This document shows, piece by piece, positions 546 to 59,581 of a stretch of DNA of 64,000 nucleotides. Positions within the stretch are counted from its first letter, which is position 1. Every line of letters starts with the position of its first letter. The position numbers and the translations under genes are program-made. This stretch comes from a phage. The notes beneath the pieces were generated by a model. It worked only from the letters and a program-made list of their open reading frames with translations. It did no database searches and was not told where the DNA came from. The DNA is taken from the sequence record PZ386967.1; one strand, given 5' to 3'.

Positions 546-611
546 GTCCCCAACAAACGTTGGGGATTTTTACTTTTAGGGGTTTACTTCTATAATGTAA
601 ATGCGTATTAT
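546..611 (+). promoter_or_regulatory. Terminator hairpin fused to early-type promoter (TTTACT-N17-TATTAT), repeat copy 1
   Basis: CCCCAACAAACGTTGGGG hairpin plus T-run, then TTTACT, 17 nt spacer, TATTAT; about 45 bp near-identical to 903-948. Confidence 0.5.
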
Positions 612-660
612 TGAATTCATAGAGCGGGGCGTTCCTGTTCATTGAAAGAAGGTATACATT

Positions 661-885
661 ATGTCTGCTATATCATGTGTTGTTGATCTCACCCCATTTT
701 GCCTGAACAATATTGCTAACCCTAAATTGGTCTTGTTTAAGGATCCCTCTAATTTCTGCTGGCTGGCAAGTTGTGATACCAACAACGGGCGTCGTGCTGT
801 TTGGGAGTTTCCCGCAACTGATGAAGGCAGAATTTCTGCTATAAGAAAATTAGAACTAGAAAATTCAAGCCGAGAAATTAAATAG
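661..885 (+). CDS. Hypothetical small protein
   Basis: ORF downstream of promoter copy 1. Confidence 0.35.
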   Translation: MSAISCVVDLTPFCLNNIANPKLVLFKDPSNFCWLASCDTNNGRRAVWEFPATDEGRISAIRKLELENSSREIK

Positions 886-902
886 GCATAACTTTTATTA
901 AA

Positions 903-968
903 TCCCCAACAAACGTTGGGGATTTTTAACTTTTAGGGGTTTACTTCCTTTAAGGAATGTCCTATTAT
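903..968 (+). promoter_or_regulatory. Terminator hairpin fused to early-type promoter, repeat copy 2
   Basis: Same hairpin and TTTACT-N17-TATTAT as 546-611. Confidence 0.5.
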
Positions 969-1019
969 TCAATAACTGGCGAACGATGGGTTCACCGGGT
1001 TGAAAGGTAAGATTATATC

Positions 1020-1259
1020 ATGAAGAACAAAATGGTCGAAACTTCAGTAGAGATTGATCGCAATTGGGGATTGCTCCGCGCTAAAGGGTTCCGTCGTGTG
1101 TATGCGACCAAAGAAGTCTACGCACAGCGCCGTGACGTTATCATCAGCAAGAAAGGCAAAGAGTGGGTTGCTGAAGAAGTTGATGTCGAGACAGGCATCG
1201 TAGGAAAGGTAAAGGCCAAGGCCGTGATCCTCTTCGCTCTTCTGAAGCACATCAGTTAA
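1020..1259 (+). CDS. Hypothetical protein
   Basis: ORF with ATG preceded by purine-rich stretch; downstream of promoter copy 2. Confidence 0.4.
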   Translation: MKNKMVETSVEIDRNWGLLRAKGFRRVYATKEVYAQRRDVIISKKGKEWVAEEVDVETGIVGKVKAKAVILFALLKHIS

Positions 1260-1318
1260 TTCTATAACTTTGGGCGGGGTATGATTACCCCGTCTATTTG
1301 AAATGCAGGAACTATACC

Positions 1319-1825
1319 ATGACCGATCAACAAATTCAAGATTTATTTTACCTCGTCCATGATAAGTCCCACATCATGCGCCCCGGTACTGTTTCCCCTG
1401 CCGTCCGTGATCTGGTGCAAGAATTGCGCGAACCACAGACGACCACACTTTATCGCGGGTTGCCTAAAGAGGACGTTGCGCGTTTAGAGATGATGTTTGA
1501 ACGAGGCGACATGTTCCAGACATGGGATTCTTGCCTTAGCTTCAGTGAACTGAAGCATGTGGCCAAAAAATTTTCTAAATCGTACGGAACCCAAGCTGTT
1601 GCCCGCATTTGTTACAAACATCGAAACAGACTCCCGGAGGGGCTTAATGTCTATGGTTCTCTAGAAAAATTTGTGAACAAAGGCGATGAATCAGAAATGG
1701 ATATGCTGGACTTGGCGTCCATGGAGAAAGAATGGATATTCTGCCAGCCTCGCGTCATACCAGTTTCAAGAAAAATGGCAACAGACGGCACGATGGTTTT
1801 TACCGTATCACTTGTTACCCTATAA
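1319..1825 (+). CDS. Hypothetical protein; possible ADP-ribosyltransferase-like (R, S-x-S, E-x-E motif order)
   Basis: Start trimmed to Met after AGGAACTATACC leader; motifs LYRG, WDSCLSFS, EKEW in the order of R-S-E class ARTs such as T4 ModA/ModB; weak. Confidence 0.45.
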   Translation: MTDQQIQDLFYLVHDKSHIMRPGTVSPAVRDLVQELREPQTTTLYRGLPKEDVARLEMMFERGDMFQTWDSCLSFSELKHVAKKFSKSYGTQAVARICYKHRNRLPEGLNVYGSLEKFVNKGDESEMDMLDLASMEKEWIFCQPRVIPVSRKMATDGTMVFTVSLVTL

Positions 1826-1877
1826 ACCCACGGCGGGGTATGATTACCCCGTCTATTTGAAACCAAGAGACTATATC

Positions 1878-2255
1878 ATGAAAAAGTTAATCCTCGCTGT
1901 TGCCCTGCTGGGCGCTTCCTTTGCTGCTGTTTCCGCCCCTCCTGTCATCACCGGAGTGTCTACCAACGGTGTTTATGCTTTCAAGGCGTATGGCCAAGAC
2001 CTCGTTCTGTATAAGAACGGGAAGATGATTGAGCGCTGCGTATCAGACGACGTGAATCGTGGGATCGACAATCAGGGTAGCCCATACGTCCTGGACATCT
2101 ATTCCTGCTCCAACGGGACGAAGTCCTTTGGCGTCAAGACCTTTGGCAACGTCGCCGACGGTGGCTGGGGCTTCATGTTCGAAACCCGCAACCACCACCC
2201 GGTCAAGACCATGCAAGAAGAGTTCTTGATCTCTGTCGGGGGTGGAACATTATGA
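1878..2255 (+). CDS. Secreted protein with N-terminal signal peptide
   Basis: Start trimmed to MKKLILAVALLGASFAAVSA after AGAGACTATATC leader. Confidence 0.5.
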   Translation: MKKLILAVALLGASFAAVSAPPVITGVSTNGVYAFKAYGQDLVLYKNGKMIERCVSDDVNRGIDNQGSPYVLDIYSCSNGTKSFGVKTFGNVADGGWGFMFETRNHHPVKTMQEEFLISVGGGTL

Positions 2256-5179: not shown

Positions 5180-5235
5180 TCAATAACCTCGGGCGGCTTA
5201 TCATAAAGCTGCCCTTTCATTTGAGAGACTATATC

Positions 5236-5898
5236 ATGGAAAAACTTTATTCTATTATCGTCGGTCCTGATCCTGACGGATTATTCTTCGCCTCGTTGTC
5301 TTATATTGCCCACGCCCGTATCGGTAGCTATTACGCATATTGCACACGTGGCCACGACGGTTCCAATATCCTCCATTATAGCCGCCTGAACGATTTCCTG
5401 GCACTTCAACCAGAAGATGTTGTGCTGGCGCGTCGCGTGTTCATCGACTTCAACGCGATGCACAACAACGAAATCGACGCTCGCTACCATGCCATGCGTT
5501 CTATGGACGGGGGAGATTGCATTTATCGTATCGACCATTTTAGTGAGTTTACCGAATGTATTGATTGGTTTATCTCTGATAAAGTGATGGGTGAAAGAAT
5601 CGTCACAACTCCGTGGGCACATGCGGAACAACTTCGTGTGTCTACCGATGCGTACAAAGAAGTCGACAATCTGTGCAACAAGTTCCGCATCTCGGTGACC
5701 TGTAATCAAGACCTGGGCGAAGAGATACAATGGACAGCTGAGTCTCCTCATTTCAGTGGCCTGGTGATGACGGCCGAAACCCGTTCCCGTGCTGTTGTCC
5801 AGTTAGTACTCTGGGCGTTCTACCAGCGCACCCCGTTCTCGTACATGGGGCAGAAAGAGATTGATGAACTCCTGAAGTCTCACGCGGTGGAGGTGTAA
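5236..5898 (+). CDS. Hypothetical protein
   Basis: Start trimmed to MEKLY after GAGAGACTATATC leader; hairpin terminator upstream. Confidence 0.5.
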   Translation: MEKLYSIIVGPDPDGLFFASLSYIAHARIGSYYAYCTRGHDGSNILHYSRLNDFLALQPEDVVLARRVFIDFNAMHNNEIDARYHAMRSMDGGDCIYRIDHFSEFTECIDWFISDKVMGERIVTTPWAHAEQLRVSTDAYKEVDNLCNKFRISVTCNQDLGEEIQWTAESPHFSGLVMTAETRSRAVVQLVLWAFYQRTPFSYMGQKEIDELLKSHAVEV

Positions 5899-9406: not shown

Positions 9407-9441
9407 AGTTTCATTCCTCTTTCTATAAAACCAGTTTGGGA

Positions 9442-9449
9442 TATTTATA
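9442..9449 (-). promoter_or_regulatory. T4-type late promoter TATAAATA
   Basis: Exact octamer on the minus strand in the 45 bp gap between divergent genes; coordinates approximate. Confidence 0.45.
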
Positions 9450-9451
9450 TC

Positions 9452-9979
9452 ATGATAGAAATTTATTCTGACGGGGGTTCTAACCCGAAGACCAACCAGG
9501 CCGCAGGCTGGGCATTTGTCATCAGGCCAATAACGGGTATGCAATGGAAGGTGTTCTTCGGCCATCTACCTCCCCCGTCCACTAACAATATCGCCGAGTT
9601 GTTGGGTGTGACCAACGCATTGAAGCTACTGTGGGCATTCTCAGGAAAGGGTGAGCGCAGAATACCAAAGGCAACAATTTGGTCTGACAGCCAATATGCC
9701 ATCAAGAGTGTCACCGAATGGCGAGCGAAGTGGGAGTATCAGGGTTTCCCAGAAAAGAACGTTGAACTCATCAAAGATCTGTTCAGAATCTATGATCTCG
9801 TTTGTTCAATTTGTGATGTTGAACTAAAATGGGTTAAGGGTCATGCGGGGCACGAAGGCAACGAACTTGCCGATGACTGGGCCACAGCAGCCAAAAACGA
9901 CAGCAACTTCCTGATTGAGAATGACAAGATCTCAGTGAAGAAGGTTGTTGGATCTTTTGATGAATTTATCGGTATCTGA
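9452..9979 (+). CDS. rnhA: Ribonuclease HI (bacterial type)
   Basis: IYSDGGS, TNNIAELLG, IWSDSQYAI, WVKGHAGHEGNELADDWA match RNase H1 catalytic motifs. Confidence 0.85.
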   Translation: MIEIYSDGGSNPKTNQAAGWAFVIRPITGMQWKVFFGHLPPPSTNNIAELLGVTNALKLLWAFSGKGERRIPKATIWSDSQYAIKSVTEWRAKWEYQGFPEKNVELIKDLFRIYDLVCSICDVELKWVKGHAGHEGNELADDWATAAKNDSNFLIENDKISVKKVVGSFDEFIGI

Positions 9980-15077: not shown

Positions 15078-15692
15078 ATGACGATGACAACGTTGAAGGC
15101 CATGGCCTTGTCCGTGACCTTTACCATTGCCAGCGGGAATGTGCACGCTTCCCAAAGTACCACCCAATGTGATTATAATTTCTCCGAGCAACAACTCAAT
15201 ACACTGGCAACTGCCTACCATGTAGGCAAGACACAAGACCTTGGTTACACCCTGGCTGCAATATCCTGGCGAGAGAGCCGCGCTGGTGAAGATGTAGTGT
15301 CAATGCGATACGGCCTCAAGGCGGCCAACATGGGAGCCTTTCAGAACAAGGTGAAGACAGTTGGTGATCGCGAAGGTTGTAAGAATCGCAAGTGCTATGC
15401 CAATGTCGCCATAAAGTTGCTGACCGACCAAGAATATGCCGCGCAAGCCGCCCTCGATGAGATGCAGTTCTGGCTGACCTATCACAATCAGAATATCCGC
15501 AAATCCCTCTCCTCTTACAATGCTGGCTTCGCCCGTAATCCTGCATCGAACGCTTATGCTGCCGACGTCGTGAAGAAAGCTAAATATCTTCAGAAATGTG
15601 TGTCTTTCGAAGGCCGGACCATCTCCGAGGTAGATCCTCGGGTGATCGCCATGAACAAGCACACAATAGAGAAACTGAAGAGGACAAGATAA
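15078..15692 (+). CDS. Secreted lytic-transglycosylase-like (SLT domain) protein
   Basis: Signal peptide; AISWRESRAG (E-S catalytic motif) and YNAG motif typical of family 1 lytic transglycosylases. Confidence 0.5.
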   Translation: MTMTTLKAMALSVTFTIASGNVHASQSTTQCDYNFSEQQLNTLATAYHVGKTQDLGYTLAAISWRESRAGEDVVSMRYGLKAANMGAFQNKVKTVGDREGCKNRKCYANVAIKLLTDQEYAAQAALDEMQFWLTYHNQNIRKSLSSYNAGFARNPASNAYAADVVKKAKYLQKCVSFEGRTISEVDPRVIAMNKHTIEKLKRTR

Positions 15693-16330
15693 TGAACATC
15701 ACTCCATCTCAGGCCGGATATGAACATATCTTGGTCTTCATTGCTCTACAGGGTGCGAAGGAAGGCATCATCGTATCCGAGTACTCAGGCACGGTTCGCC
15801 TTGCCGATTATGTCGCACCAGAGGCATTTATCAAGAAGTGTATTGACGCATGGTGTCTCTATGCCCTCAGCACATACCCTGCTCCTCCTGAGGGTGAGCT
15901 GTTGTTTACTGTACCGACTCCGGCTGTTGGGGATACGGATGCCATCTTTGCCGATATGCTGGCGAAGGGGTATCTGGTGTATGACATCACCCACGATGTC
16001 TACTCTTTTACTTCGCTGAACACCGTGTTTGGATTCACCATCACATCTGAAGCCAACATCCCTGACTGGGGTATCTTGGCATGGGGTGTTGACGGCCTGG
16101 GTGCAACCTACGCATCGTCTGACGTCGGTGCAGTTCTGATTGATGAGGGTGTCACCATGGAGCAGTACCTTGCCCAGTTCCCTCAGCACAATATCACAGG
16201 CAGCGACATCATTTTGGTCCAGCCTGGCGCTATCGCTCTCCCCCGTTTGGTGGATGGATGGAATCCTCGGCTGAAGGGCATCATCGCAGGTATTCGATCC
16301 CACATTCCGATTGTGAATCCGACGCCGTAA
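15692..16330 (+). CDS. Hypothetical protein
   Basis: Start trimmed to MNITPSQ; ATGA overlap with upstream gene. Confidence 0.5.
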   Translation: MNITPSQAGYEHILVFIALQGAKEGIIVSEYSGTVRLADYVAPEAFIKKCIDAWCLYALSTYPAPPEGELLFTVPTPAVGDTDAIFADMLAKGYLVYDITHDVYSFTSLNTVFGFTITSEANIPDWGILAWGVDGLGATYASSDVGAVLIDEGVTMEQYLAQFPQHNITGSDIILVQPGAIALPRLVDGWNPRLKGIIAGIRSHIPIVNPTP

Positions 16331-16343
16331 AATAATTCAATAA

Positions 16344-16388
16344 AAGGGGCTTTTGCCCCTTTACTTCTTCAATATCCTTCCCTATACT
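16344..16388 (+). promoter_or_regulatory. Terminator hairpin plus early-type promoter TTTACT-N17-TATACT
   Basis: AGGGGC-tttt-GCCCCT hairpin then TTTACT, 17 nt, TATACT; coordinates approximate. Confidence 0.45.
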
Positions 16389-16436
16389 TCATTCCATAAG
16401 CAACACAACACCAACTTGAAAAGCAGGAACTACACC

Positions 16437-16712
16437 ATGAAAATTATCCTCGACGCATATATCCGCCACGGTCAGAAATACCTGATGGCCAAGGTTTACG
16501 ACGGCGAAGAATTGATCCACGCCCAGACCGCCCCAGCTGCCCAGCTGCGAGAAATCATGTCACGCGACTTCCCTGGTGTTGAAATGGTAGAGCCTACCAA
16601 CCAGGCCGAAGTAGACAAAGAGTGGGAGCGCGAATGGAGTCCAGCGGCTATCGCTCGGGCTGAAAAGAATTGGTCTAACCGCGAAAACGCAAACCGCCCT
16701 TTCCGCCGTTAA
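16437..16712 (+). CDS. Hypothetical protein
   Basis: Start trimmed to MKIILD after CAGGAACTACACC leader. Confidence 0.5.
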   Translation: MKIILDAYIRHGQKYLMAKVYDGEELIHAQTAPAAQLREIMSRDFPGVEMVEPTNQAEVDKEWEREWSPAAIARAEKNWSNRENANRPFRR

Positions 16713-16734
16713 TTTGAACCGAAGGAACTATATC

Positions 16735-17070
16735 ATGACACAACTCAAGAACTTCACCGCCGATGACATGTTTGCCTTCCAGGGTGCTGAGCACTTTGCT
16801 GACGGCTCCGTACCTCGCATCTACTACTTCTCCGACGAAGAAATGGAAGATTTCTTCGCCCTGATGGAAAAGGACTACGAACCAGACGACTTCGTTTATA
16901 TCATCCATCACGCCGAAGGACTGACATTGGGCTGGACGGCCAACAATGAACCAGAAGAAGTAAACTTCCCTGAAGGTATCATGTCAGAGCGCGTCGAATA
17001 TCTACTGGAAGCCCTGGACCCCCACACCCTCCCGCTCTGGGCGATGTCTGTAGCCCAAGTTCAAAAATAA
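16735..17070 (+). CDS. Hypothetical acidic protein
   Basis: Start trimmed to MTQLK after AAGGAACTATATC leader. Confidence 0.5.
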   Translation: MTQLKNFTADDMFAFQGAEHFADGSVPRIYYFSDEEMEDFFALMEKDYEPDDFVYIIHHAEGLTLGWTANNEPEEVNFPEGIMSERVEYLLEALDPHTLPLWAMSVAQVQK

Positions 17071-17145: not shown

Positions 17146-20130
17146 ATGTCAAAGCCAAGTTTCCTCCAGTTCATGCAGGAAAGAGATCAGTTGGACGAAG
17201 CGTTCAACTCCGCTCCGTATGAGCTGACCATGGGTAAGAAGAACGCAGGCGATGTGTTCTTCACCTTCGTCGACGAAGATGATAAGGAATACCGCATTCA
17301 GTTCTATACTCCTCAGGGACTGGGCAAGAGCGTTCGTCAGGTTTTCATCGGCCAGAAGCGCGGCTCCGTCTATCCTGACGCCATCGCTCGCTTCAAGAAC
17401 CCAATGCGCGTTATTGCTTCCATGATCGAAGCGACCAAACAATTCATGGCGACTCCTCTGGGCAAAACTATCGATGGCTATGCTGTCAACTTCTCGAAGA
17501 AAGCGCTGGATCGCGGTATGACCCTGATTCCTAAGATCATCCGCCAGTCCGGTCTGAAGCAGAAACTGAATGTCATGGACCTGACCTACGCGCCTGTCCC
17601 TGACCGTGGTTATGTGTGGCTAGTTCGTAAGGGCAAAGATCCGGCTCAGGTATTCGACGGTCCGAAGATGCAGGGTATCACCTGGGATGATCCAGACAAG
17701 GTCGGTGACGTTCCGGTTCAGAACAATACTCCGGATGTGGGTGTGTCATCTTCTGTTGATAATTCCAACGGATGGAAATTAACTTCAAACGGGGATCAGC
17801 CCATGTTGATATGGGCTGGTAAGGAGAGAGGCCGCACGAATACGGCAAATATCGCTCCCCACTACAATGAGCCGGGCGTGTATGTTGGCGCATACATGAA
17901 TGAGAAACCTGTGCGTGGGCAAAGTGCTGATTTCATTGCTCGTCAGTTGAAATTACCACAAGTCCCTATCAGTATCCTGAATGATTTCACCACGGCGTCC
18001 ACAAAATTTTGGAAAGGTTCTCAACAGAAATCTGCGCCTGTTGTGCCGGCAGGTTCGGACAGAAATAACCCAGCCAACATTATCGGTTCTGGAACTGCTG
18101 TTATTGATGCCAAACGGCTTGGTGCTCAGGAAGTAAACGTGGAACGATTCAAAAACGGCGTTCGCATGCGTTCTCGAAACGGTGACGTCGACATCAGTAT
18201 TTCTGACCCAGACTTTTCAAATGCAGCAAGTGCGGCTGATGCTGCCACAGCCTCTGTTGTGGTCAAGAACGGGCGTTACGAAGGTGCCATCAATTCAAAG
18301 CGCAAGATTGCCCGCACCTCGAACGAGCAGGGTACTGAATGGGATATCATCGGTGTCAACGGGGAAACCCTTGTCTCTATCAAGTTGAACAAAGTGTCTA
18401 AATCCACATCAGATTCGACCGAGGGTGCAACCAGTGTTGATCAATTACGTGACAGCGGTTTCATCGCTCGTGTTCTGGGTATCATTGATACCAACGTTGG
18501 GCTGGACACTTCTATTCTTCCTGGTGAAAACATCCGTCGCGTGGGCGCTGGTCGTTACACGACGGCAGGCGGGTTGGTTATCGTTGTCAACTTCACAAAC
18601 GTCCTCGCTGGTTTCGTTCAATACTCAGTTTTCAGCGAAATTGCTGAAGAGGAGAACGTGGCCAAAGGTAGCGCCCGTGACGTCGCCAAGGCGGTAATTG
18701 CGTCCATCTTTGAGGTTGCTAAGACCCAGTACACTGGCAAATGGGAAATTAGCGCAGTGCCAACAAGCGCTCCATATCCTATCAAAGCCATTCGCCGTTC
18801 TCGGGGCTGGGGTTATGTGGAAACCGCAAACTGGACTCTGACAGTGTCCGACGCTGTCCTGAATCGTGTGAAGCCAGGGAACACTGCTCTACTGGAACTC
18901 ATCAAAGAACCTCCGCGTGGCAAGCACCCGCTGGAAATCATCCCAGAGAAGGGCGACAAGACCCTGATGCTGAAAGATCGTATCACCGGGGCCATCTATG
19001 GTTCTATCGACCTGAATGCCCAAGGCGCTGATCTGGTCAACTCTGGAACCCTGAAGATACCAAGCAACGCCATGGTGTTTGGTGAGACTGTCAACGGTAT
19101 GTCCATTCGGTGGGATGTCAATTTCCCCGAAACGGGAAAATACGCCGGTACTTCTATGATAACCAACGTGACCTATTACTACGACAAAGGTAAAGTTGCA
19201 TTCACCCCAATTGTCTCTCAGAAAGGGCGTACCCTGAACAATCCGAAGACATATGAACTTCCTTTAAACAAAGATATGGTCCAGAGTGTGATTGATGAGA
19301 TTTCATCAAAAATGGTATATCTTTCCAGAAACCTCCAACAGTTGAAAAGTCAGTCATACAACCCAAACCAGGTGTTCTTGAACGATATAACCATCACGGA
19401 TAAAGGTGAAGTGATTTGGAATGATTACAACTTGTCTGACGGCAAAGTTACACAAATTATGCTGTCCATGATAAGCGCAGAAAATAAACGCCTGGAGAAA
19501 GTAGCAAACACGCCGGATATCAATATCACATTGCCCAAGAAACAAGCTGAAGTGGTAGAATTTATAAACCGGATGATCGATGTCGATCTCACCCCTTATG
19601 TGAGAACCCCCAAAAAACGTGATGTGGTATTATTTGACTCTTCTGAATTGTCGATAAACCAACTCAACAACATAGAACGCCTGGGAAGAGAAACAGGAAA
19701 ATGGTCTCTTCAGCCAAACGGTGGTATGGGTCATGCACTACTTCTGAAAAGCACGTCGCACAATCCGAAGGACGACCTTGCGGCATACGCCGACTCCATT
19801 CGCGACAACGCACCAAAAGGTCGCGACCTGGATTGGCAGATCTATGCAAGCCGTGATGGTCAGACTCTGAACGTGGACTGGGATATCACCTTCCGCCGCA
19901 ACACAACTGAAGGGGCATATCGCGAGTTCAAAGCTCAGATTGACCGCGCCAACCAGTACCTGCAGACACTGTACCGGGATGCGAAGTCCAAGGGTTACAA
20001 CCCGACTGAACCAAACCTGATGACTCTGGATAGCGCCCAGCAGTCTGACCAGTGGGCACGAGACTACGGGGAAGGCGCATACAGCGAGTACGAGCAGTCC
20101 CTGGGTGGCAACATGCAGATTAAGATCTGA
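17146..20130 (+). CDS. Large hypothetical protein (994 aa)
   Basis: Long uninterrupted ORF; no recognisable catalytic motif. Confidence 0.6.
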   Translation: MSKPSFLQFMQERDQLDEAFNSAPYELTMGKKNAGDVFFTFVDEDDKEYRIQFYTPQGLGKSVRQVFIGQKRGSVYPDAIARFKNPMRVIASMIEATKQFMATPLGKTIDGYAVNFSKKALDRGMTLIPKIIRQSGLKQKLNVMDLTYAPVPDRGYVWLVRKGKDPAQVFDGPKMQGITWDDPDKVGDVPVQNNTPDVGVSSSVDNSNGWKLTSNGDQPMLIWAGKERGRTNTANIAPHYNEPGVYVGAYMNEKPVRGQSADFIARQLKLPQVPISILNDFTTASTKFWKGSQQKSAPVVPAGSDRNNPANIIGSGTAVIDAKRLGAQEVNVERFKNGVRMRSRNGDVDISISDPDFSNAASAADAATASVVVKNGRYEGAINSKRKIARTSNEQGTEWDIIGVNGETLVSIKLNKVSKSTSDSTEGATSVDQLRDSGFIARVLGIIDTNVGLDTSILPGENIRRVGAGRYTTAGGLVIVVNFTNVLAGFVQYSVFSEIAEEENVAKGSARDVAKAVIASIFEVAKTQYTGKWEISAVPTSAPYPIKAIRRSRGWGYVETANWTLTVSDAVLNRVKPGNTALLELIKEPPRGKHPLEIIPEKGDKTLMLKDRITGAIYGSIDLNAQGADLVNSGTLKIPSNAMVFGETVNGMSIRWDVNFPETGKYAGTSMITNVTYYYDKGKVAFTPIVSQKGRTLNNPKTYELPLNKDMVQSVIDEISSKMVYLSRNLQQLKSQSYNPNQVFLNDITITDKGEVIWNDYNLSDGKVTQIMLSMISAENKRLEKVANTPDINITLPKKQAEVVEFINRMIDVDLTPYVRTPKKRDVVLFDSSELSINQLNNIERLGRETGKWSLQPNGGMGHALLLKSTSHNPKDDLAAYADSIRDNAPKGRDLDWQIYASRDGQTLNVDWDITFRRNTTEGAYREFKAQIDRANQYLQTLYRDAKSKGYNPTEPNLMTLDSAQQSDQWARDYGEGAYSEYEQSLGGNMQIKI

Positions 20131-22467: not shown

Positions 22468-22563
22468 CAGGCCTCATTCGACGAGGCCTTTTAAAATACT
22501 TCAAAAATAATTTTAAAAAATTATTGAAAAAGACTTTACTCTTCAATAATGATGCACTATTAT
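22468..22563 (+). promoter_or_regulatory. Terminator hairpin plus early-type promoter TTTACT-N17-TATTAT
   Basis: AGGCCTC-attcgac-GAGGCCT hairpin with T-run, AT-rich tract, then promoter; coordinates approximate. Confidence 0.45.
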
Positions 22564-22636
22564 AGTTCACATAGGGCGGTAACACACCGCCGAATGAAAA
22601 GTGAAATGAACCAACTACATTATGAGGAATTACATC

Positions 22637-23125
22637 ATGGCTACCACCAAAACTCTGATCACCAACGGCACCATCTCTTTCGAACTGAACACCGAAGTTG
22701 CTAAAGTTGAAATGTTCCGCATCGCTCAGGCAGCTGGCTTCACTGGTGGCAAAACTTCCTTCATGAACCTGCTGAACGGTAAAGTGAAAGCGACTAACGG
22801 CTTCACCCTGGTAGAGCAGGTTGTGGTTGATAAAGCTGTGGTTGCTAAGACTGCCGACAAAGTTGGTATGCTGAAAAACCTGGGTCACGACATCCACATT
22901 GTCGAAGCAAGCACCGAAACTTACGGCACCATCGTAGTCGGTAAAGGTCGCATCCAGCTGAACCCGCTGAACAACGGTTCCTTCTCTGTGATGGTCTTCC
23001 CTAAGAAGGGGTACGACAACACCGACATCGTGAAAGCTGTTGGCGGCGAAGCAAAAGCTCAGTACGTCAAAATGGGTAAACTGAGCGCCGACGCAGTTGA
23101 AGCTCTGGTGAACAAACTGGCTTAA
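22637..23125 (+). CDS. Hypothetical protein, likely highly expressed
   Basis: Start trimmed to MATTKT after GAGGAATTACATC leader; codon usage biased to CTG/AAA/GGT/GAA. Confidence 0.55.
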   Translation: MATTKTLITNGTISFELNTEVAKVEMFRIAQAAGFTGGKTSFMNLLNGKVKATNGFTLVEQVVVDKAVVAKTADKVGMLKNLGHDIHIVEASTETYGTIVVGKGRIQLNPLNNGSFSVMVFPKKGYDNTDIVKAVGGEAKAQYVKMGKLSADAVEALVNKLA

Positions 23126-27413: not shown

Positions 27414-27482
27414 ATTGGTCTAAACCTACTACCGTTATATCATCAGGGGTGAGAGATCACCCCTATTCATCAGGAGTTCTAT

Positions 27483-27776
27483 ATGTTCCAAACGTTATTG
27501 TTAGTCCCTGGCCAACCAGGTATCTTGCTCGAACACAACAGCAAAATGGAAGCGGAGAATGTTCTGCGCAACGTGAAGGTGGCCACTGCTTGGCACAACG
27601 GCGGCGAAGTCACGGCTATCCCGTTGAACTACACGGATCCAATGGATACTGTGAACCGTACTCACATCCTTCTAGACCTCAGCAAATTACCTGCAGACAA
27701 ACGCCGGGATTTTGTTGTTAACATCAAGAATTACATTACCACCGAACAGATCAAACTCCACGAAGGCAAGGCATAA
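27483..27776 (+). CDS. Hypothetical small protein between nrdA and nrdB
   Basis: 97 aa ORF, partly overlapped by the nrdB N-terminal extension frame. Confidence 0.35.
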   Translation: MFQTLLLVPGQPGILLEHNSKMEAENVLRNVKVATAWHNGGEVTAIPLNYTDPMDTVNRTHILLDLSKLPADKRRDFVVNIKNYITTEQIKLHEGKA

Positions 27777-29122: not shown

Positions 29123-29170
29123 AAGCCCCTCAATGAGGGGCTTTACTTCTATAATCCCTGCGCTTATACT
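29123..29170 (+). promoter_or_regulatory. Terminator hairpin plus early-type promoter TTTACT-N17-TATACT
   Basis: AGCCCCTC-aat-GAGGGGCT hairpin then promoter; coordinates approximate. Confidence 0.45.
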
Positions 29171-29221
29171 TCCCAGTAATTCATTGGCATTCGCCACAAA
29201 TTGAACAGCAGGAACTATATC

Positions 29222-29461
29222 ATGACCGACTCTGAAGTCTACGACACCTCAATGAAATACCACGCCATGACAGCCAAACGCGGCTGTGCTGCTAACAAGG
29301 CATATTGGATAGGTGAACTCAGAACCCTCCGCGCCGTGGTCAACCACGAAATCATTATGAATCACGACAACAACGGTCAAGGTAAAGACCGAGAAGAATT
29401 GAAGGTTGCTCGTGAACGTCTTCGCTTTGGTCTGACCAAAGCCCTTGAATATGTGAAATAA
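29222..29461 (+). CDS. Hypothetical protein
   Basis: Start trimmed to MTDSEV after CAGGAACTATATC leader. Confidence 0.5.
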   Translation: MTDSEVYDTSMKYHAMTAKRGCAANKAYWIGELRTLRAVVNHEIIMNHDNNGQGKDREELKVARERLRFGLTKALEYVK

Positions 29462-29472
29462 GGAACTATATC

Positions 29473-29934
29473 ATGACAAACAAAGTACTCACCAACCCAC
29501 TGCACAACTTCGGTTACATTCAACTCCCTCTGGTGATCGACACCCTGTACGCCGACGACAAAGAAGAGATCTGCTGGTCACCCACCGCACTGATTGAACG
29601 CGAAATCTTCAAGTCTGTTGTTGATGTCATGTTCCGTATCGGTCGCAATGGACCTCTGGTCTACCTCGGCAAGGTGACTGAGTTGAAGACAAGCCACAAC
29701 GAACGCTTCCTTCGTATCGATACAACGGGGTGCTCTCATCAGGACTTCAACACATTGCGCAATTATGTTCTGGTCAACCGCCCGGTCAGTCAACACCGCC
29801 CGTATCTGACGTCAATGCACATCGACAATTTCATCACCGACGTACACCTCCGCGCCGAAACCCTCCATGAAGAGGAAACAGGCCGAGCTATCGACACAGT
29901 CTTAAATATGGTTGTGATCACCCTGGCGGAGTAG
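29473..29934 (+). CDS. Hypothetical protein
   Basis: ATG preceded by AAGGAACTATATC leader. Confidence 0.5.
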   Translation: MTNKVLTNPLHNFGYIQLPLVIDTLYADDKEEICWSPTALIEREIFKSVVDVMFRIGRNGPLVYLGKVTELKTSHNERFLRIDTTGCSHQDFNTLRNYVLVNRPVSQHRPYLTSMHIDNFITDVHLRAETLHEEETGRAIDTVLNMVVITLAE

Positions 29935-36481: not shown

Positions 36482-37492
36482 ATGGGTAATTTATTCGATC
36501 GTCTGAAAGCATCTCGTGGCCAGCAAACTGAAGCAATGCAGGCGCGTCTTGCACAGCAAGGCCAGAAGTCCGGTTTCCAGAAGGATCCTCGCATCTGGAA
36601 ATGGACTTGGAACAAAGATGGTATCTCCGAGAATATCATCCGCTTCCTGCCAGTCCCGCTGGTAGACCTCAAGGCACAGGAAGAAGGGACGATCGATAAA
36701 GATCAGATCCTCACCCCTTGTGCCATGATCATGAAGCATCAGTTCCAAGGACCTGGTGGTTGGTACATTGAGAACTCACCTCAGACGTTCGGCAACGACG
36801 ATCCGGTGCGCGACCATGACCGTCCGCTGTGGGCGCAGCAGAAAGAAACGAACGACGAAAAGCTGAAGGACATCCTGAAGAAACGTCTACCCAACACCGA
36901 TTACTACGCTAACATTCTGGTGATCAAAGATGTCAACGTACCGGAAAACAACGGCAAGGTCTTCCTGTTGAAATTTGGTAACGCCATCAAGAAAATCCTG
37001 GATCAGGCGCAGAATCCTAAGTTCCCAACCGACCCTAAATTCGATCCGTTCGATCTGTGGGAAGGTGCCAACCTGAACCTGAAGCTCTTTGGCGAGCAGA
37101 AGAAGTTTGGGAACTGGGAAGGTCTGGTGGCAAACTTCAGTAAGGTGGTGTGGGAGAACCCTGCCCCGCTGAGTGATGACGAAGCGTATATGGAAGACGT
37201 CTGGTCTCGTGAGCATAGCCTGTTTGAATTCTTCAATCCGGCTAACTTCAAAGACTACGACACCCTGGAAAAGCGCCTGCGCAAAGTTCTGGCAATTCCT
37301 GATGACCAGCCTCTGGTTGAAGGTGGTGCAGCCACGATGGCTCATGCTCCTAGCACCCAGACTACACATCAGCCAACTGCTCAAGACAGCCTGAAACAGC
37401 AACAGGCCGCGCCGTCGCAGGCTCAGACTCAACCGGATGCCAGAAACACGGCTACCATTGATGAATTCGAGCAGTATCTCAAGTCTAACTGA
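36482..37492 (+). CDS. 32: Single-stranded DNA-binding protein gp32
   Basis: IRFLP, YYANILVIKDVNVPENNGKVF and WEGANLNLK match T4 gp32 (IRFLP, [30 protein letters not shown]); acidic Q/A/P-rich C-terminal tail. Confidence 0.85.
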   Translation: MGNLFDRLKASRGQQTEAMQARLAQQGQKSGFQKDPRIWKWTWNKDGISENIIRFLPVPLVDLKAQEEGTIDKDQILTPCAMIMKHQFQGPGGWYIENSPQTFGNDDPVRDHDRPLWAQQKETNDEKLKDILKKRLPNTDYYANILVIKDVNVPENNGKVFLLKFGNAIKKILDQAQNPKFPTDPKFDPFDLWEGANLNLKLFGEQKKFGNWEGLVANFSKVVWENPAPLSDDEAYMEDVWSREHSLFEFFNPANFKDYDTLEKRLRKVLAIPDDQPLVEGGAATMAHAPSTQTTHQPTAQDSLKQQQAAPSQAQTQPDARNTATIDEFEQYLKSN

Positions 37493-37519
37493 TCAAACAA
37501 GCCATCTTCGGATGGCTTT

Positions 37520-38464
37520 TTATTTTCCCATCACGTCTTTCAATATCCCCAACAGGCTTGTCTTCTCCGCCGCCGTCAGGTTATCGTTGCCCATGATGTC
37601 ACGAGAGATACCTACCGAGATGCGCTCGAAGTCCTGTATGCTTATCCCAGCCAGGTTGTTTACAAGTTGGTCAAGCTGTTTGTAAGCCAGGAGAGCCTCT
37701 CCTGTGAAGTTCCCTTCTTTCACCTTGCGATAAAGCTGTCCGGCTTTTGAGGCCGCAGTTTCCCAGTCACCACTGGTAAGAGCGTCAGCAATACCGAGAG
37801 GAAGAAAATCGCTGGAAAGGCTGCGTGTTTCATATTCTGTCTCCGAAAGCACTTTGTTGTAAGAGAAAGAAATGTTGTACTGGTTGAACTGGTCTGTGGC
37901 ACCTTTATCCAGCTCAATAGAACTGAAATTTATTGGGTGAGCCTCGACGATGTAGACGCGGTGGACCACTTGATCTTCGGTGTCAAGCTGTTCAATGCAT
38001 ATGTCAGTCACGAAGTCTTCGTAATATCCCATTTTGGTGGTGTGTGGATCAAAGATCAGACTCTTCCACTTGTCCATCACAGACTTCTCATAATAGTCAT
38101 TGGCTAATAAGAATGACAAGTCGAGGTCGACGTTGGACTTGTTGTTCGGCATCTTGATGTGATTACCGTTGCTTGTCATTGGAGTGGTGTCGATACCAAC
38201 CCCTGGCAATGAGGCAACCATACACATCATCTGAAGGGAACGGGACGTCTGGTTTGTCCCTCCAAAGAAAGCGTTTACAATACGGGCTGACTGCTTAAAC
38301 AAGTCACCGAAAGATGAATTGGTTCTGTACGCCTTTCCGTCATTAGCCAGAGTGGCATTGGAGTCAAAGATCCCTGGTGGTAGAGGGATGGTCACTCTGA
38401 AGCGGTTCTTGCGCGACAAGCCCCGCTGTAATATCTGTGTGATAAAATTGCGATAGTCTTCCAC
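37520..38464 (-). CDS. Late structural protein, possibly baseplate/tail-tube associated (gp48/gp54-like); assignment uncertain
   Basis: TATAAATA octamer on the minus strand about 35 nt upstream. Confidence 0.45.
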   Translation of the reverse strand: MEDYRNFITQILQRGLSRKNRFRVTIPLPPGIFDSNATLANDGKAYRTNSSFGDLFKQSARIVNAFFGGTNQTSRSLQMMCMVASLPGVGIDTTPMTSNGNHIKMPNNKSNVDLDLSFLLANDYYEKSVMDKWKSLIFDPHTTKMGYYEDFVTDICIEQLDTEDQVVHRVYIVEAHPINFSSIELDKGATDQFNQYNISFSYNKVLSETEYETRSLSSDFLPLGIADALTSGDWETAASKAGQLYRKVKEGNFTGEALLAYKQLDQLVNNLAGISIQDFERISVGISRDIMGNDNLTAAEKTSLLGILKDVMGK

Positions 38465-38498
38465 GGTGAGGACTCCACTTAAATAAAATAACTGTTAT

Positions 38499-38506
38499 TA
38501 TTTATA
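38499..38506 (-). promoter_or_regulatory. T4-type late promoter TATAAATA
   Basis: Plus strand reads TATTTATA upstream of minus gene start at 38464; coordinates approximate. Confidence 0.45.
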
Positions 38507-38517
38507 GGAGTTGACAA

Positions 38518-39222
38518 ATGGCAAAGAATGCAGCTGGCGAAGAAGATCCGTTGCTGTTTCCGGCCGAGATGGACGCCCCCGAGCTGGTCAAGCGTTACAT
38601 CCGCAAGTACCGTCAACACTTCGGTCCAGAGGCGAAGCGTAACATCCGCCGTTCGCATGTGTGGTTCATGGAGCGTGTGTCTAAGGACGCCAACCTGAAT
38701 CCCAACCATATGAAACAGGCGTTTGCTGATCACAAACGTCCGGTACAAGGTGTGCGGTATATAGTCGGGCGTATGTTCTATTTCAAATATGATGCTCTGA
38801 CGAAGAATGAACTACCCTACTGGGATATGTACCCTCTGGTGTTCTTCTTCAACTTTGTCAAGGGTGATGGTATCACCTTTGGAGAGAAGGGTGTGACATA
38901 CCTCTGGGGACTCAACATGCACTACCTGCCACCGAAGCTCAGGCTGTTGGTGTTTGAGGATCTGATTAAGTTGCGTAACGAACGGGCATACCGCTCAAAG
39001 ACGCGTCTGAAGCTCACCTGGGAAGCCCTGAAGCGCTTCGCCAACCATCCGCTGTACAATCACTGTGTGAAGCTGTACCGCGCCGATCAGTTCCGTTCAC
39101 AGCTTTACGAGATTGAACCACAGTACTGGGAGATCGTTCTCTTCATGCGCACGGCTCGCTTCCAGAAACAGAGCCAGATGTCTGTGTGGAAAGATGCACG
39201 TCGTATGCATAAGAAGAAATAG
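38518..39222 (+). CDS. Hypothetical protein
   Basis: 234 aa ORF with GGAG RBS. Confidence 0.5.
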   Translation: MAKNAAGEEDPLLFPAEMDAPELVKRYIRKYRQHFGPEAKRNIRRSHVWFMERVSKDANLNPNHMKQAFADHKRPVQGVRYIVGRMFYFKYDALTKNELPYWDMYPLVFFFNFVKGDGITFGEKGVTYLWGLNMHYLPPKLRLLVFEDLIKLRNERAYRSKTRLKLTWEALKRFANHPLYNHCVKLYRADQFRSQLYEIEPQYWEIVLFMRTARFQKQSQMSVWKDARRMHKKK

Positions 39223-48344: not shown

Positions 48345-48420
48345 GAACACCAAGAAGCCCAGTCAAGTACTGGGCTTTTTAACTTCAATAACTTTACTTT
48401 CAAGAAATAATCGCCTAATA
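48345..48420 (+). promoter_or_regulatory. Terminator hairpin plus early-type promoter TTTACT-N17-TAATAT
   Basis: GCCCAGT-caagt-ACTGGGC hairpin with T-run then promoter; coordinates approximate. Confidence 0.45.
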
Positions 48421-48452
48421 TTTAATCTGTATTGAAGAGTTACAACTACATC

Positions 48453-49658
48453 ATGAGGCTGGAAATGAACGTCAAAACATTCAATATTCCGATCGACAAT
48501 GAAGGGTTGGTAGTTGAGCGACTGAAGAAGCTCGAGCGCACTGCCGAAAGGTTGGGTGTTCCGTTTCCGACTGTGACTTATGGTGAACCCTTCAAAACCC
48601 ACACCCGCGACTTCACTGGTGAGATCCTTACTCACTGGTGGAAACCTGTTACTCTCGAAGGCGAAGGCATTGACCGCCCCGTCTCTTATGGTGGCTGGAA
48701 GATCATCGGTCAGTTCAATCACGAATATCCAAAGGTTATTCTTAACCGCCTGTCCGACAACATCAATCCTGACTTCATCCGTCACTTCGAGACAGAGAAC
48801 GTCTCTTGGTGTCAGCATTGCAATCTAGTCATCCGTCGCAAGAACACGTATGTGATTGAAAATGAGGAAACGCATACCCAGATGCTGATTGGTAGCACCT
48901 GTATGCATCATTATGTGCCTCATCAGAAGTCCCTTGACGCGATTATGTCTTACTATCTGGAAATCCAAGAGTTCTTCATGCCAGACGAGGACGACCCAGA
49001 GGGTATATATCGCGTCCAAAATGAGCGCTTCGTCGACACCCACAGTTTCCTGCGCGCATGCTTCCAGGTGATGCTAGCAGGCGTGGATATCAAGTCTGAA
49101 CTGTTTGACAAAGTACTGGGCTATGTCCGGTCTCATCAGAAACCAAAAGCAGGTTCCGATGAAGAGTATTTCGTAAACAAGGCACACGAATACCGTGAAG
49201 ATGCCGAGTCGGAAATGTACCATATGAAGCTTTTCATCAGTGCGCTGTCCGAATCTAATGAGTTCAATGTTCGCCTGAAACGCATGTGTGAACCCGGCTA
49301 TCACCTCATCAAGGATAACAACACAGTCCGCTGGGGTGCCAAGAAGTATTACGATTACATCCATCGTCCTCGTACTGACCGCAAGGCGGAGAACAAATGG
49401 GTGGGTGAAGTCGGTGAAATGCTGGAAGTGCAAGTCAGGTTCGACAAGCGCACCTTCCTCTTCTCCAATGAATATGGTGATAGCTACCTGTTTACTTTCA
49501 AAACAGCAGAAGGCAATACAATTACCTGGAAGACCTCTTATATGGATACAGAGTTCTTGCAGGGTGATATGATCATCCGTGGTCGTGTTAAAGAACTGAC
49601 TGAGTACAACGGCGTTAAACAAACTCAGGTCACCAGAGCTAAATTGAGGAAGTTATGA
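48453..49658 (+). CDS. Hypothetical protein (402 aa) with Cys/His cluster
   Basis: Start trimmed to MRLEMNVK; CQHCN ... CMHH region suggests metal binding. Confidence 0.5.
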   Translation: MRLEMNVKTFNIPIDNEGLVVERLKKLERTAERLGVPFPTVTYGEPFKTHTRDFTGEILTHWWKPVTLEGEGIDRPVSYGGWKIIGQFNHEYPKVILNRLSDNINPDFIRHFETENVSWCQHCNLVIRRKNTYVIENEETHTQMLIGSTCMHHYVPHQKSLDAIMSYYLEIQEFFMPDEDDPEGIYRVQNERFVDTHSFLRACFQVMLAGVDIKSELFDKVLGYVRSHQKPKAGSDEEYFVNKAHEYREDAESEMYHMKLFISALSESNEFNVRLKRMCEPGYHLIKDNNTVRWGAKKYYDYIHRPRTDRKAENKWVGEVGEMLEVQVRFDKRTFLFSNEYGDSYLFTFKTAEGNTITWKTSYMDTEFLQGDMIIRGRVKELTEYNGVKQTQVTRAKLRKL

Positions 49659-59531: not shown

Positions 59532-59581
59532 GGTCTCAGCCCTTAAATAGATAGAGTGTTATGGCTATTTAGGACTAGATT
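59532..59581. promoter_or_regulatory. Divergent late promoter region with TAAATAG inverted repeat
   Basis: 50 bp gap containing TAAATAG ... CTATTTA, close to the TATAAATA late-promoter octamer on each strand. Confidence 0.4.

Follow-up and report, generated by a model that had tools for sequence, protein, structure and literature searches.

T4-like phages carry mobile regulatory cassettes known as promoter-early stem-loop (PeSL) elements (Arbiol et al. 2010, PMC2839356; Comeau et al. 2014, PMC4122927). At their 3' end stand a Shine-Dalgarno (SD) sequence and an ATG, and the crossovers have been placed in the interval from the -10 box to the ATG (PMC2839356, PMC4122927). We analyzed a 64,000-nt stretch of phage record PZ386967.1 (one strand, 5' to 3'; hereafter the window), which comes from an Ag3/ZQ1-like, ViI-like phage of the Ackermannviridae. 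At the sequence level, the early sigma70-type promoter consensus, the adjacent, G+C-rich and repeated intergenic stem-loop (terminator or attenuator), the 3' SD with its start codon ATG, and the location at insertion, deletion and replacement junctions of close relatives that mark a PeSL were all found in the window, and the flanking genes are likewise small ORFs of unknown function. The window cassettes differ from PeSLs in belonging to a family outside the scope of the PeSL papers, in their consensus, whose -35 box is the T4-early-like TTTACT, in a 3' end that is more than an SD, namely a sharp two-block motif (TTGAA-N4-AGGAACTAYAYC), and in that this motif also stands alone, with neither promoter nor stem-loop, as a 22-nt operon linker.

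Other described systems share parts of this arrangement. Early mRNAs of T4 contain the RegB/S1 site GG*AGRAYARAA (Durand et al. 2006, PMC1702504; Uzan & Miller 2010, PMC3014915). Like that site, the leader described here has a class-specific, single-stranded sequence of approximately 11 nt that starts with GGA in the early SD and extends through the spacer; unlike it, GGA is followed by ACUAYAYC and not by G-R-A-Y-A-R-A-A, and there is an additional upstream TTGAA block. The T4 and RB69 RegA operators also overlap -12..+3, take in the AUG, and are unstructured and rich in A/U, but the T4 operators have no sharp consensus (SELEX sequence aaAAUUGUUAUGUAA). The T7 gene 10 leader, a strong phage ribosome-binding site (AAGGAGAUAUACAU-AUG), likewise has an SD followed by a G-free, structure-poor spacer of the UAUA(C)AU type, and the gene 661 variant of our motif (GAAGGTATACATT-ATG) is very close to it; the T7 leader is, however, a single site and not a recombining repeat family, and homology is not implied. 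Botstein's modular theory of phage evolution of 1980 reportedly invokes conserved 'linker' sequences between modules. In both cases a short conserved boundary sequence permits homologous exchange of unrelated modules, although the linker in the window doubles as the downstream translation start and is confined to early accessory genes.

The papers on CBA120, AG3 and LIMEstone1 report that early regulatory signals are few or absent in ViI-like phages, and the one on CBA120 states that early promoters could not be identified. Our literature search on Ackermannviridae transcriptomes and early promoters found nothing relevant. A sequence-only reading of the window had pointed to a leader shared by many early genes and was partly borne out; it had missed that the leader is the 3' end of a promoter/UTR cassette and a gene-exchange junction. 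We consider it reasonably likely that the leader serves a repeated early expression cassette, the counterpart of PeSLs in the Ackermannviridae, as its module for translation initiation, and that it is a recombination linker as well.

A two-block leader at a subset of gene starts

The leader, approximately 24 bases long and found before many early genes, reads TTGAA-N4-AGGAACTAYAYC-ATG at eight gene starts of the window, all on the + strand (Table 1), with weaker or SD-less copies at 661, 1020, 22622 and 48453. AGGA occupies -12..-9, 8 nt before the ATG, at the eight gene starts, where a canonical SD-led initiation region was found; at the SD-less 22622 and 48453 it was not. The sequence-only reading had quoted nine starts (1319, 1878, 5236, 16437, 16735, 22637, 29222, 29473 and 48453), and the sequence that it described is present at all nine. 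As for TTGAA, said to precede it often, 5236 lacks this block and 29473 and 22622 carry GTGAA. At 48453, and likewise at 22622, the motif lacks an SD, and the real start probably lies at another ATG.

Table 1. Leader copies, cassettes and associated hairpins in the window.
Feature	Position	Strand	Elements
Focal leader, operon-internal	16714..16737	+	TTGAA 16714-16718, N4, AGGAACTATATC 16723-16734, ATG 16735-16737; gene 16735-17070 downstream; TAA of gene 16437-16712 ends 1 nt upstream
Complete early cassette	16342..16439	+	terminator hairpin 16342-16362; -35 TTTACT 16360-16365; -10 TATACT 16383-16388; G-poor 5'UTR; TTGAA 16416-16420; AGGAACTACACC 16425-16436; ATG 16437
Leader of gene 1319-1825	1274..1321	+	hairpin GCGGGGTATGATTACCCCGT 1274-1293; TTGAA 1298-1302; AGGAACTATACC 1307-1318
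Leader of gene 1878-2255	1833..1880	+	second copy of the 1274-1293 hairpin, 1833-1852; TTGAA 1857-1861; AGAGACTATATC 1866-1877
Leader of gene 5236-5898	5191..5238	+	hairpin 5191-5214; AGAGACTATATC 5224-5235; TTGAA block absent
Tandem leader region	22535..22639	+	early promoter TTTACT 22535..TATTAT 22563; 5' hairpin 22574-22591
Tandem region, copy 1 (SD-less)	22601-22624	+	GTGAA-N7-AACTACATT-ATG
Tandem region, copy 2 (canonical core)	22625-22636	+	AGGAATTACATC, then real ATG 22637
Leader of gene 29222-29461	29126..29224	+	terminator hairpin 29126-29140; early promoter 29142-29170; 5'UTR; TTGAA 29201-29205; AGGAACTATATC 29210-29221
Operon-internal leader of gene 29473-29934	29452..29475	+	GTGAA; AGGAACTATATC 29461-29472
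SD-less site	48393..48467	+	early promoter 48393-48421; TTGAA-N7-AACTACATC-ATG 48432-48455, then AGG..ATG
Two weaker cassettes	548..1022	+	repeated terminator CCCCAACAAACGTTGGGG 548-565 and 904-921; TTTACT promoters 583-611 and 940-968; leader variants TTGAAagaAGGTATACATT-ATG (gene 661) and TTGAAaggtAAGATTATATC-ATG (gene 1020)
Hairpins immediately upstream of promoters	548-565, 904-921, 16342-16362, 29126-29140, 48358-48374
UTR hairpins	1274-1293, 1833-1852, 5191-5214, 22574-22591

In the window, AGGARMTAYAYC has 5 matches against 0.09 expected, ACTAYAYCATG has 8 against 0.13, and the two-block pattern TTGAA-N7-AACTAYAYY-ATG, with at most one mismatch, has 7 against 0.00. When the window was scanned with a weight matrix built on the 12 nt preceding the ATG, 8 sites scored at least 15.8 while the runner-up scored 12.5, which indicates a discrete class; all 8 lie on the + strand with the ATG of a gene start immediately 3'. 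An alignment of start regions, which the sequence-only reading had suggested, was made with 90 called starts. It contained information only in the SD (-11..-8) and in a weak A-T-C at -3..-1, indicating that the leader belongs to a subset of starts and is not a genome-wide habit. Our data support the earlier claims that conservation reaches well past the SD and that the leader marks a class of early genes. TAYAY follows the SD at 14 of 92 starts (background 1.6%), but as a general spacer rule for early genes it was rejected, since most of these 14 starts are the leader sites themselves.

We found the leader in ZQ1, CBA120 and Erwinia phage Bue1 and in putative LIMEstone1 and putative Klebsiella phage sequences as well, and it heads at least 20 unrelated gene families. 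The ZQ1 sites outside the part that matches the window all lie before annotated ATGs of small hypothetical genes. The TTGAA block, which played no part in selecting the sites of the 20-family comparison, is conserved in 14-19 of the 20 unrelated families, and the N4 between the blocks varies. Since late, highly expressed genes (major capsid, sheath and portal) lack the leader, it is not simply the best start region of this phage. An exact-match scan of IMG/VR for AGGAACTATATCATG returned at least 120 contigs, mostly unrelated, as chance predicts for a 15-mer; it was set aside as evidence of spread, being uninformative beyond the retrieval of contigs of Ackermannviridae size.

Putative early cassettes and gene exchange at the leader

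The leader forms the 3' end of repeated early cassettes, each made of a terminator hairpin, a T4-early-like, host-sigma70-type promoter (TTTACT-N17-TATACT) and a 5'UTR, and it also occurs without a promoter as a 22-nt linker within operons. The ATG of the cassettes lies 48-51 nt past the -10 box, and the promoter spacer often contains CTTCAATAA. By consensus match, TTTACT-N17-TA..T lies upstream of 661, 1020, 16437, 22637, 29222 and 48453, and likewise in ZQ1 and CBA120. Approximately 12 TTTACT-type promoters are present in ZQ1; a strong leader follows 7 of these (six at 48-50 nt after the -10 box, one at 73 nt), and weak leader variants follow three more. The promoters, the start of transcription and the 'early' timing are putative and derive from such consensus matches. 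The product of gene 1319-1825 is RNA polymerase ADP-ribosylase-like, a function typical of immediate-early genes. Searches with Rfam covariance models found nothing at gathering score across the window and nothing at E <= 1 within 16300-16800.

That the leader acts in translation initiation, as proposed earlier, is consistent with where it lies, with an AGGA box 8 nt ahead of the ATG, and with its lower predicted structure. The predicted mean unpaired probability was 0.62 for leader start regions and 0.50 for other starts (Mann-Whitney p = 0.001), and the predicted local MFE was -1.6 versus -3.8 kcal/mol (Mann-Whitney p = 0.004), in samples that are not independent since the eight leader sites share sequence. 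On the mRNA, AGGA would pair with the 16S rRNA tail, and the 8-nt A/U/C spacer and the G-poor UTR would hold the site single-stranded; every downstream ORF might then receive equally efficient, context-independent ribosome loading early in infection. By inspection, no pairing with the 16S rRNA 3' tail beyond AGGA was found.

Between relatives, homology ends exactly at the leader ATG. In the slot after the DUF7270 gene, the promoter, UTR and leader of the cassette at 16342..16439 stand before six different gene sets in relatives; the contents are A, B, C, D, E+F, B+G or A+B, and genes A to E are unrelated by blastp. An identical linker, TAA tttgaaccgaaggaactatatc ATG, joins A to B in the window, where it contains the focal leader, and the unrelated E to F in relative L140, and the identical junction between the two different gene pairs amounts to 25 nt. 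At a different genomic site, the same UTR and leader precede a homologue of gene C (29% identity). Gene 29222, referred to as gene X, is present or absent between two leader copies: it is missing in ZQ1 and 9 other relatives (L134, L139, L141, L147-L151), in which the leader abuts the next gene. Gene 1319 is an insertion or deletion between direct repeats of approximately 50 nt (left copy 1274..1321), and in relative L155 the repeat is single-copy and aligns to both window copies (1274..1321 and 1833..1880). This direct-repeat indel would be the evolutionary footprint of recombination between leader copies.

Homology to 8 relatives is lost at 5238-5272. Overall, left edges of homology loss lie at 1322-1324, 1881, 5238-5272, 16440/1 and 29224-30, with 3-11 relatives each, and such edges were found at 5 of 8 leader starts compared to 6 of 37 other starts (Fisher p = 0.014), with the caveat that phage gene boundaries are commonly mosaic junctions anyway. 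Gaps 616-900 and 524-1014 in relatives terminate at the modules of the weaker cassettes (548..1022). On the DNA, comparison shows that the leader is a repeat of 22-50 nt exactly at the ORF boundary, so that it would serve as recombination homology: an ORF could enter, leave or be exchanged right at the ATG, and its expression would be automatic. Within operons, the promoter-less copies would connect one cassette to the next. Two forces are probably at work in keeping the leaders the same: selection acting on the start region, and homogenization or spread by recombination.

Together with TTTACT-N17-TATACT, the leader would make the immediate-early genes of Ackermannviridae recognizable by a simple sequence rule. 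Exchange at a shared 22-50 nt socket that supplies expression would explain the swapping of small accessory genes in an otherwise very syntenic family. Ackermannviridae serve in biocontrol and therapy, and the socket would mark variable genes, probably for host takeover or anti-defence, as well as a natural insertion site for payload genes.

Several observations speak against the cassette model. The SD is just AGGA (4-6 bp) and not a strong box, the model gives the TTGAA block no role, and conservation extends to the SD-less copies at 22601-22624 and 48432-48455, whose ATG does not act as the main start. The region 22535..22639 is kept in 20 relatives, and its copy 1 is retained even where copy 2 is lost. 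Plain ribosome-binding function does not account for the conservation of the SD-less copies.

Alternative explanations for the conserved leader

The leader might instead be an operator for a trans-acting post-transcriptional regulator, either a RegA homologue or another RNA-binding protein of phage or host, an alternative that we regard as unlikely. The candidate regulator would bind the single-stranded region -21..+3 and shut off the immediate-early class together, in a way analogous, but not identical, to T4 RegA or RegB/S1. Only genes of the early class carry the motif, late genes do not; its two conserved blocks with a variable spacer are what a binding site would have, and the SD-less copies are conserved too. 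Furthermore, it is predicted to be unstructured, is A/U-rich and includes the AUG, like T4 RegA sites (PMC3014915), and T4 offers the precedent of an 11-nt class-specific site starting in the SD. The relatives ZQ1 and CBA120 encode a true RegA homologue beside clamp-loader genes (Pfam PF01818, E 2e-34), in a region approximately 7 kb outside the window. However, the leader is absent from the start regions of regA, 44, 62, 45 and rIIA in ZQ1 and CBA120, and the rIIB start has only a partial match (GGAACTACAAG-ATG); the leader is therefore not the consensus of the classical RegA regulon. It also has no similarity to the T4 or RB69 SELEX sequences besides A/U richness, and the recombination pattern could by itself maintain the repeat. 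The RegA-like operator raised by the sequence-only reading thus gains a homologue in relatives and loses the classical targets, and we do not favor it. Only tentatively would we read UUGAA-N4-AGGAACUAYAYC-AUG as the site of a candidate phage factor, for instance the divergent RegA homologue, or else a nuclease or a repressor with no relation to RegB. Such a factor would silence the whole immediate-early class after the first minutes of infection, making it functionally analogous to RegB/S1 control in T4, although protein and site would both differ, and any ORF recombined behind the leader would automatically fall under the same control. A regulator that binds the leader would represent a second class-wide control of early mRNAs via the start region, independent of T4 RegB.

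It is rather improbable that a generic SD is all the leader provides and that its extended identity stems from neutral hitch-hiking after recent cassette copy-and-paste or gene conversion. Promoter/UTR/leader modules are indeed near-identical at paralogous sites in front of ORFs that are unrelated or just 29% identical, and the direct-repeat indels show that the repeats recombine. Against this, the core is retained from Aglimvirinae to Cvivirinae, in Erwinia phage Bue1 and in the putative Klebsiella phages, while the N4 and the upstream UTR diverge; in the putative Klebsiella phage genomes the UTR differs in sequence and length and TTGAAcagcAGGAACTATATC is unchanged. Moreover, the core varies only by pyrimidine-for-pyrimidine changes at -4, -2 and -1, and the motif is invariably placed exactly at the ATG.

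We consider it very improbable that a RegB-like endoribonuclease cuts the leader and thereby inactivates early mRNAs within the SD, a possibility that had also been raised from the sequence. In T4, RegB/S1 acts on 11 nt of single-stranded sequence starting with GGA in early-gene SDs, the leader likewise begins with (A)GGA, and ZQ1 carries a 'putative RegB' annotation. That protein (window 15078-15692) proved to be a homologue of T4 Vs.1 (E 1e-14) and not RegB, and its ORF gave no RegB signal in Pfam, PDB or PHROG searches. The suggested search for a regB homologue, done by tblastn with T4 RegB, gave no match in the window, in the whole of ZQ1 (149 kb) or in 150 kb of CBA120, with a best E-value of 1. 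The leader has AGGAAC and neither GGAG nor GGAGRAYARAA, so that GGA alone is common to AGGAACTAYAYC and the RegB/S1 site.

That the reverse complement CATGATATAGT acts as an extended -10 promoter (TGnTATAGT) making antisense RNA against early 5'UTRs is hardly conceivable: a consensus scan does flag TG before TATAGT on the - strand at 1339-1311, but neither a conserved -35 box nor an antisense feature was seen, and in approximately one third of the sites position -4 is a C (TACA), which replaces the essential A2 of the -10 hexamer by G. A sigma70 or middle promoter on the coding strand (TTGAAx / TAYAYC) was rejected as well, with a spacer of just 9-10 nt, a C as the last -10 base and a transcript that would begin inside the ORF. 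A CsrA-type A(N)GGA site was discarded as unspecific because any AGGA box fits it.

Start codons and annotation of early genes

The products of leader genes align to PHROG families from residue 1. The N-terminal extensions of the 'RNYIM' type had been suspected to be artefacts, and this was confirmed: AGG-AAC-TAT-ATC-ATG is in frame and free of stops, and the TTG of TTGAA at -21 is in frame too, which is why the ORF list begins these ORFs at 1298, 16714, 29201 and 48432. Downstream of the SD-less motif copies, the real starts are probably 48465, and not the motif ATG at 48453, and 22637, and not the motif ATG at 22622; in CBA120 the first ATG is out of frame with the protein. The leader thus fixes true start codons, and several database starts, the six-frame extensions and one 'RegB' annotation are wrong. 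At the boundary between genes 29222 and 29473, the TAA stop of the former overlaps the SD of the leader of the latter (aTAAGGAAC).

A discrete leader before a subset of genes

Our data indicate that the leader, a TTGAA block separated by four nucleotides (N4) from a 12-nt core that includes an AGGA box and directly precedes the ATG, is real and statistically solid. The sequence-only reading had described it at nine or more gene starts, and it is present at all nine that were named. In the window, which is 96% identical to Escherichia phage vB_EcoM-ZQ1 (ZQ1) and 92% to Shigella phage Ag3 (Ackermannviridae, Aglimvirinae) and has no identical counterpart among the phage-collection records, we found 5 matches to AGGARMTAYAYC (0.09 expected), 8 to ACTAYAYCATG (0.13 expected) and 7 to TTGAA-N7-AACTAYAYY-ATG with at most one mismatch (0.00 expected). 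When the 12 nt before the ATG were scored with a weight matrix, eight sites reached at least 15.8 and the next best 12.5, which defines a discrete class; all eight lie on the + strand with a gene-start ATG directly 3'. Across 90 called start regions (our own gene call, 92 genes), information was limited to the SD (-11 to -8) and a weak A-T-C (-3 to -1), so the leader is a subset-specific element and no genome-wide habit. It also explains artefactual ORF extensions beginning at 1298, 16714, 29201 and 48432, since AGG-AAC-TAT-ATC-ATG is in frame and stop-free and the TTG of TTGAA (-21) is in frame. The rnh start (9435-9454) and the start at 60417 (- strand) end in ..TTTATATC-ATG or ..AGGAATTTATC-ATG, and ATC-ATG endings are common among late genes. 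These endings suggest that the phage may have a general preference for A-U-C at -3 to -1.

The first 31 kb of the window hold, on the + strand, small ORFs of unknown function intermixed with replication and nucleotide-metabolism genes (helicase, RNase H, gp55, gp46/47, primase, PhoH and NrdAB). For comparison, ZQ1 (149 kb) and CBA120 (150 kb) were assembled out of annotated records, and 45 more Ackermannviridae loci, including a LIMEstone1-size genome (152,427 bp), Klebsiella-phage-size genomes and Erwinia phage Bue1, were chosen through protein similarity and not through the motif. ZQ1 contains further strong leader sites outside the region matching the window, each ahead of the annotated ATG of a small hypothetical gene, with some of them inside the structural region, and CBA120, from another subfamily, carries the leader both at orthologues and at further genes. 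Major capsid, scaffold, portal, tube and sheath genes, which are late genes, lack it, and several of them end in ATC-ATG. Taking all compared sequences together, at least 20 unrelated gene families stand behind the leader. Using one representative per family (n = 20), we found TTGAA, which played no part in site selection, conserved at -21 to -17 in 14-19 of the 20, while N4 (-16 to -13) is variable and changes in the core are confined to exchanges of one pyrimidine for the other at -4, -2 and -1. At the orthologous gene-Y site, Klebsiella-type and window sequences differ in UTR sequence and length with TTGAAcagcAGGAACTATATC unchanged, and Bue1 retains ACACTATATC-ATG.

Leader copies, associated elements and homology edges in the window
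Feature	Position	Strand	Description or basis
Leader of gene 16735	TTGAA 16714-16718; AGGAACTATATC 16723-16734; ATG 16735-16737	+	sequence
Promoter cassettes	upstream of 661, 1020, 16437, 22637, 29222, 48453	+	terminator-like hairpin, TTTACT-N17-TA..T, G-poor 5'UTR
Hairpin directly 5' of leader	genes 1319, 1878, 5236	+	instead of promoter cassette
Identical 31-nt hairpin copies	1273-1303 (gene 1319); 1832-1862 (gene 1878)	+	sequence repeat
Promoter-less leader copies	genes 16735, 29473	+	TTGAA/GTGAA block and core directly after preceding stop codon
SD-less motif copies	22601-22624; 48432-48455	+	two-block motif fits, no SD in N7
Left edges of homology loss	1322-1324 (11 loci); 1881 (3); 5238-5272 (8); 16440/1 (11); 29224-30 (8)	n/a	blastn

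The TTTACT element of the putative promoters, in whose spacer CTTCAATAA is frequent, is similar to GTTTAC, the -35 box found in early promoters of T4, and early timing and promoter activity of the cassettes are presumed from consensus matches. The whole ZQ1 genome has approximately 12 such promoters, followed by a strong leader in 7 cases and by weaker variants in 3 more; among the strong ones, the ATG lies 48-50 nt past the -10 box in 6 of 7 and 73 nt in the other. CBA120 shows the same promoter-leader pattern. Downstream of the ATG of the SD-less copies come AGG and, 12-15 nt on, another ATG, which is the conserved protein start; the first ATG does not share the reading frame of the protein in CBA120 orf061 and opens a 3-codon mini-ORF in Klebsiella-phage-size genomes. 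Separately, CTTAAATA / ACTAAATA recurs just upstream of late-type genes (37492-38518, 59531-59582, and upstream of 20188, 23308 and 29940), twice as back-to-back pairs between divergent genes, and appears to be the phage family's gp55-type late promoter.

Gene exchange at the leader

We found one shared promoter, UTR and leader in every genome at the slot flanked by the DUF7270 gene (15692-16330) and the 994-aa gene (17146). What starts from the leader ATG differs, namely A (91 aa), B (111 aa), C (122 aa), D (123 aa), E+F, B+G or A+B, with no similarity among A, B, C, D and E by blastp. Exactly the same junction, TAA tttgaaccgaaggaactatatc ATG, joins A to B in the window and E to F in the relative locus L140, where both flanking genes are different. 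ZQ1 carries a homologue of gene C (29% identity) at another location, adjoining the region of the tail sheath, and the UTR and leader ahead of it are again the same. Gene X (29222), in the slot that follows the glutaredoxin gene, occurs in some relatives and is missing from others; the window and L140 have a second leader copy before gene Y, and in ZQ1 and nine others (L134, L139, L141, L147-L151) Y comes straight after the first cassette.

When window positions 1-32 kb were mapped against 39 relatives (blastn), left edges of homology loss clustered just past leader ATGs, at 5 of 8 leader starts vs 6 of the 37 remaining + strand starts (Fisher p = 0.014), and right edges fell immediately 5' of the leaders at 1878, 16735 and 29473. 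Both window copies (1273-1322 and 1832-1881) align to one and the same 50-nt hairpin-plus-leader in L155, which makes gene 1319 an insertion/deletion between direct repeats. This gene is missing from several close relatives. In PHROGs, its product (1319-1825) matches the 'RNA polymerase ADP-ribosylase' family (E 5.8e-15, over the C-terminal portion of the profile), a name also carried by the CBA120 orthologue in RefSeq; the 2011 CBA120 paper described ViI-like phages as being without Alt/ModA homologues.

Promoter-early stem-loop cassettes (PeSLs) of T4-like phages are repeated modules that combine a stem-loop with an early promoter and finish 3' in an SD and ATG, and they sit at indel junctions with crossovers between the -10 box and the ATG (PMC2839356, PMC4122927). 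The leader cassettes have every PeSL feature testable from sequence, but differ in phage family, consensus, a sharply conserved two-block 3' end and promoter-less linker copies. The best-supported reading is that the leader is probably a shared early-gene start module doubling as the recombination socket of PeSL-like cassettes, presumably by providing the homology for exchange. The CBA120, AG3 and LIMEstone1 genome papers contain no description of the leader, and early promoters could not be identified in the CBA120 paper.

Not all variable genes use this socket, because an ORF between nrdA and nrdB (27483-27776, 97 aa; region 27475-27775), missing from 15 compared relatives, has an ordinary SD without the leader. 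Gene 661-885 lies between near-exact repeats, 355 nt apart, of a terminator hairpin (CCCCAACAAACGTTGGGG and ATTTTTA(A)CTTTTAGGGGTTTACTTC, 548-600 and 902-955), and is missing in most relatives (gap 616-900). The 994-aa gene (17146-20130), annotated in CBA120 as a possible fusion protein, has a centre (17714-19773) that is hypervariable or replaced in most relatives and conserved ends.

Translation start features and trans-acting regulation

The AGGA box of the leader is placed 8 nt 5' of the ATG, a distance that corresponds to a gap of 6 nt behind a full AGGAGG box, and the spacer is similar to that of the T7 gene 10 leader, UAUACAU. In predicted structures (-50 to +40 context), mean unpaired probability over -20 to +10 was 0.62 at the 8 leader sites vs 0.50 at 78 other starts (Mann-Whitney p = 0.001) and local MFE was -1.6 vs -3.8 kcal/mol (p = 0.004), the 8 sites not being independent samples since they share sequence. 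These features suggest that the leader may support efficient translation.

It had also been suspected that the leader is the target of a RegA-like repressor or a RegB-like endonuclease, which is reasonable in kind because the T4 RegB/S1 site is an 11-nt single-stranded sequence, GGAGRAYARAA, in early-gene SDs (PMC1702504, PMC3014915). That the leader is an operator for a trans-acting factor is the less likely reading in our judgement, and the most interesting alternative. A RegA homologue is clear in ZQ1 and CBA120 beside the clamp-loader genes (Pfam PF01818, E 2e-34), approximately 7 kb past the left end of the window; against the RegA suggestion, the leader is absent from the regA, 62, 44, 45 and rIIA start regions of both genomes, and rIIB has only GGAACTACAAG-ATG. 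T4 and RB69 SELEX sequences have A/U richness alone in common with the leader, and no Rfam family matched it. Fragments of the leader do occur at classical RegA-target genes of ZQ1 outside the window, because gene 44 has a GC hairpin and (C)TATTTGAA upstream, as at 1319/1878, but without the core, and TTGAAC-cccc-ACTATATT lies 5' of the SD that belongs to gene 45.

A RegB-like mechanism is very improbable, since a tblastn search of the window, ZQ1 and CBA120 with T4 RegB (protein sequence from the T4 record) found no match (best E-value 1). The 'putative RegB protein' of ZQ1 (QVW27157; window 15078-15692) matches T4 Vs.1 (E 1e-14) and gave no RegB signal in Pfam (a weak SLT transglycosylase-like match only), PDB or PHROGs; judged by these matches, the annotation is evidently wrong and the protein a T4 Vs.1 homologue. 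In the T4 locus, several early genes (nrdC.8, nrdC.10, denV and mobD.2) have a common extended leader, (C)TATCAACT(A/G)..GGAG(G)AA.A.AAA-ATG, which likewise has a conserved block ahead of the SD and makes a helpful comparison with the two-block leader of the window.
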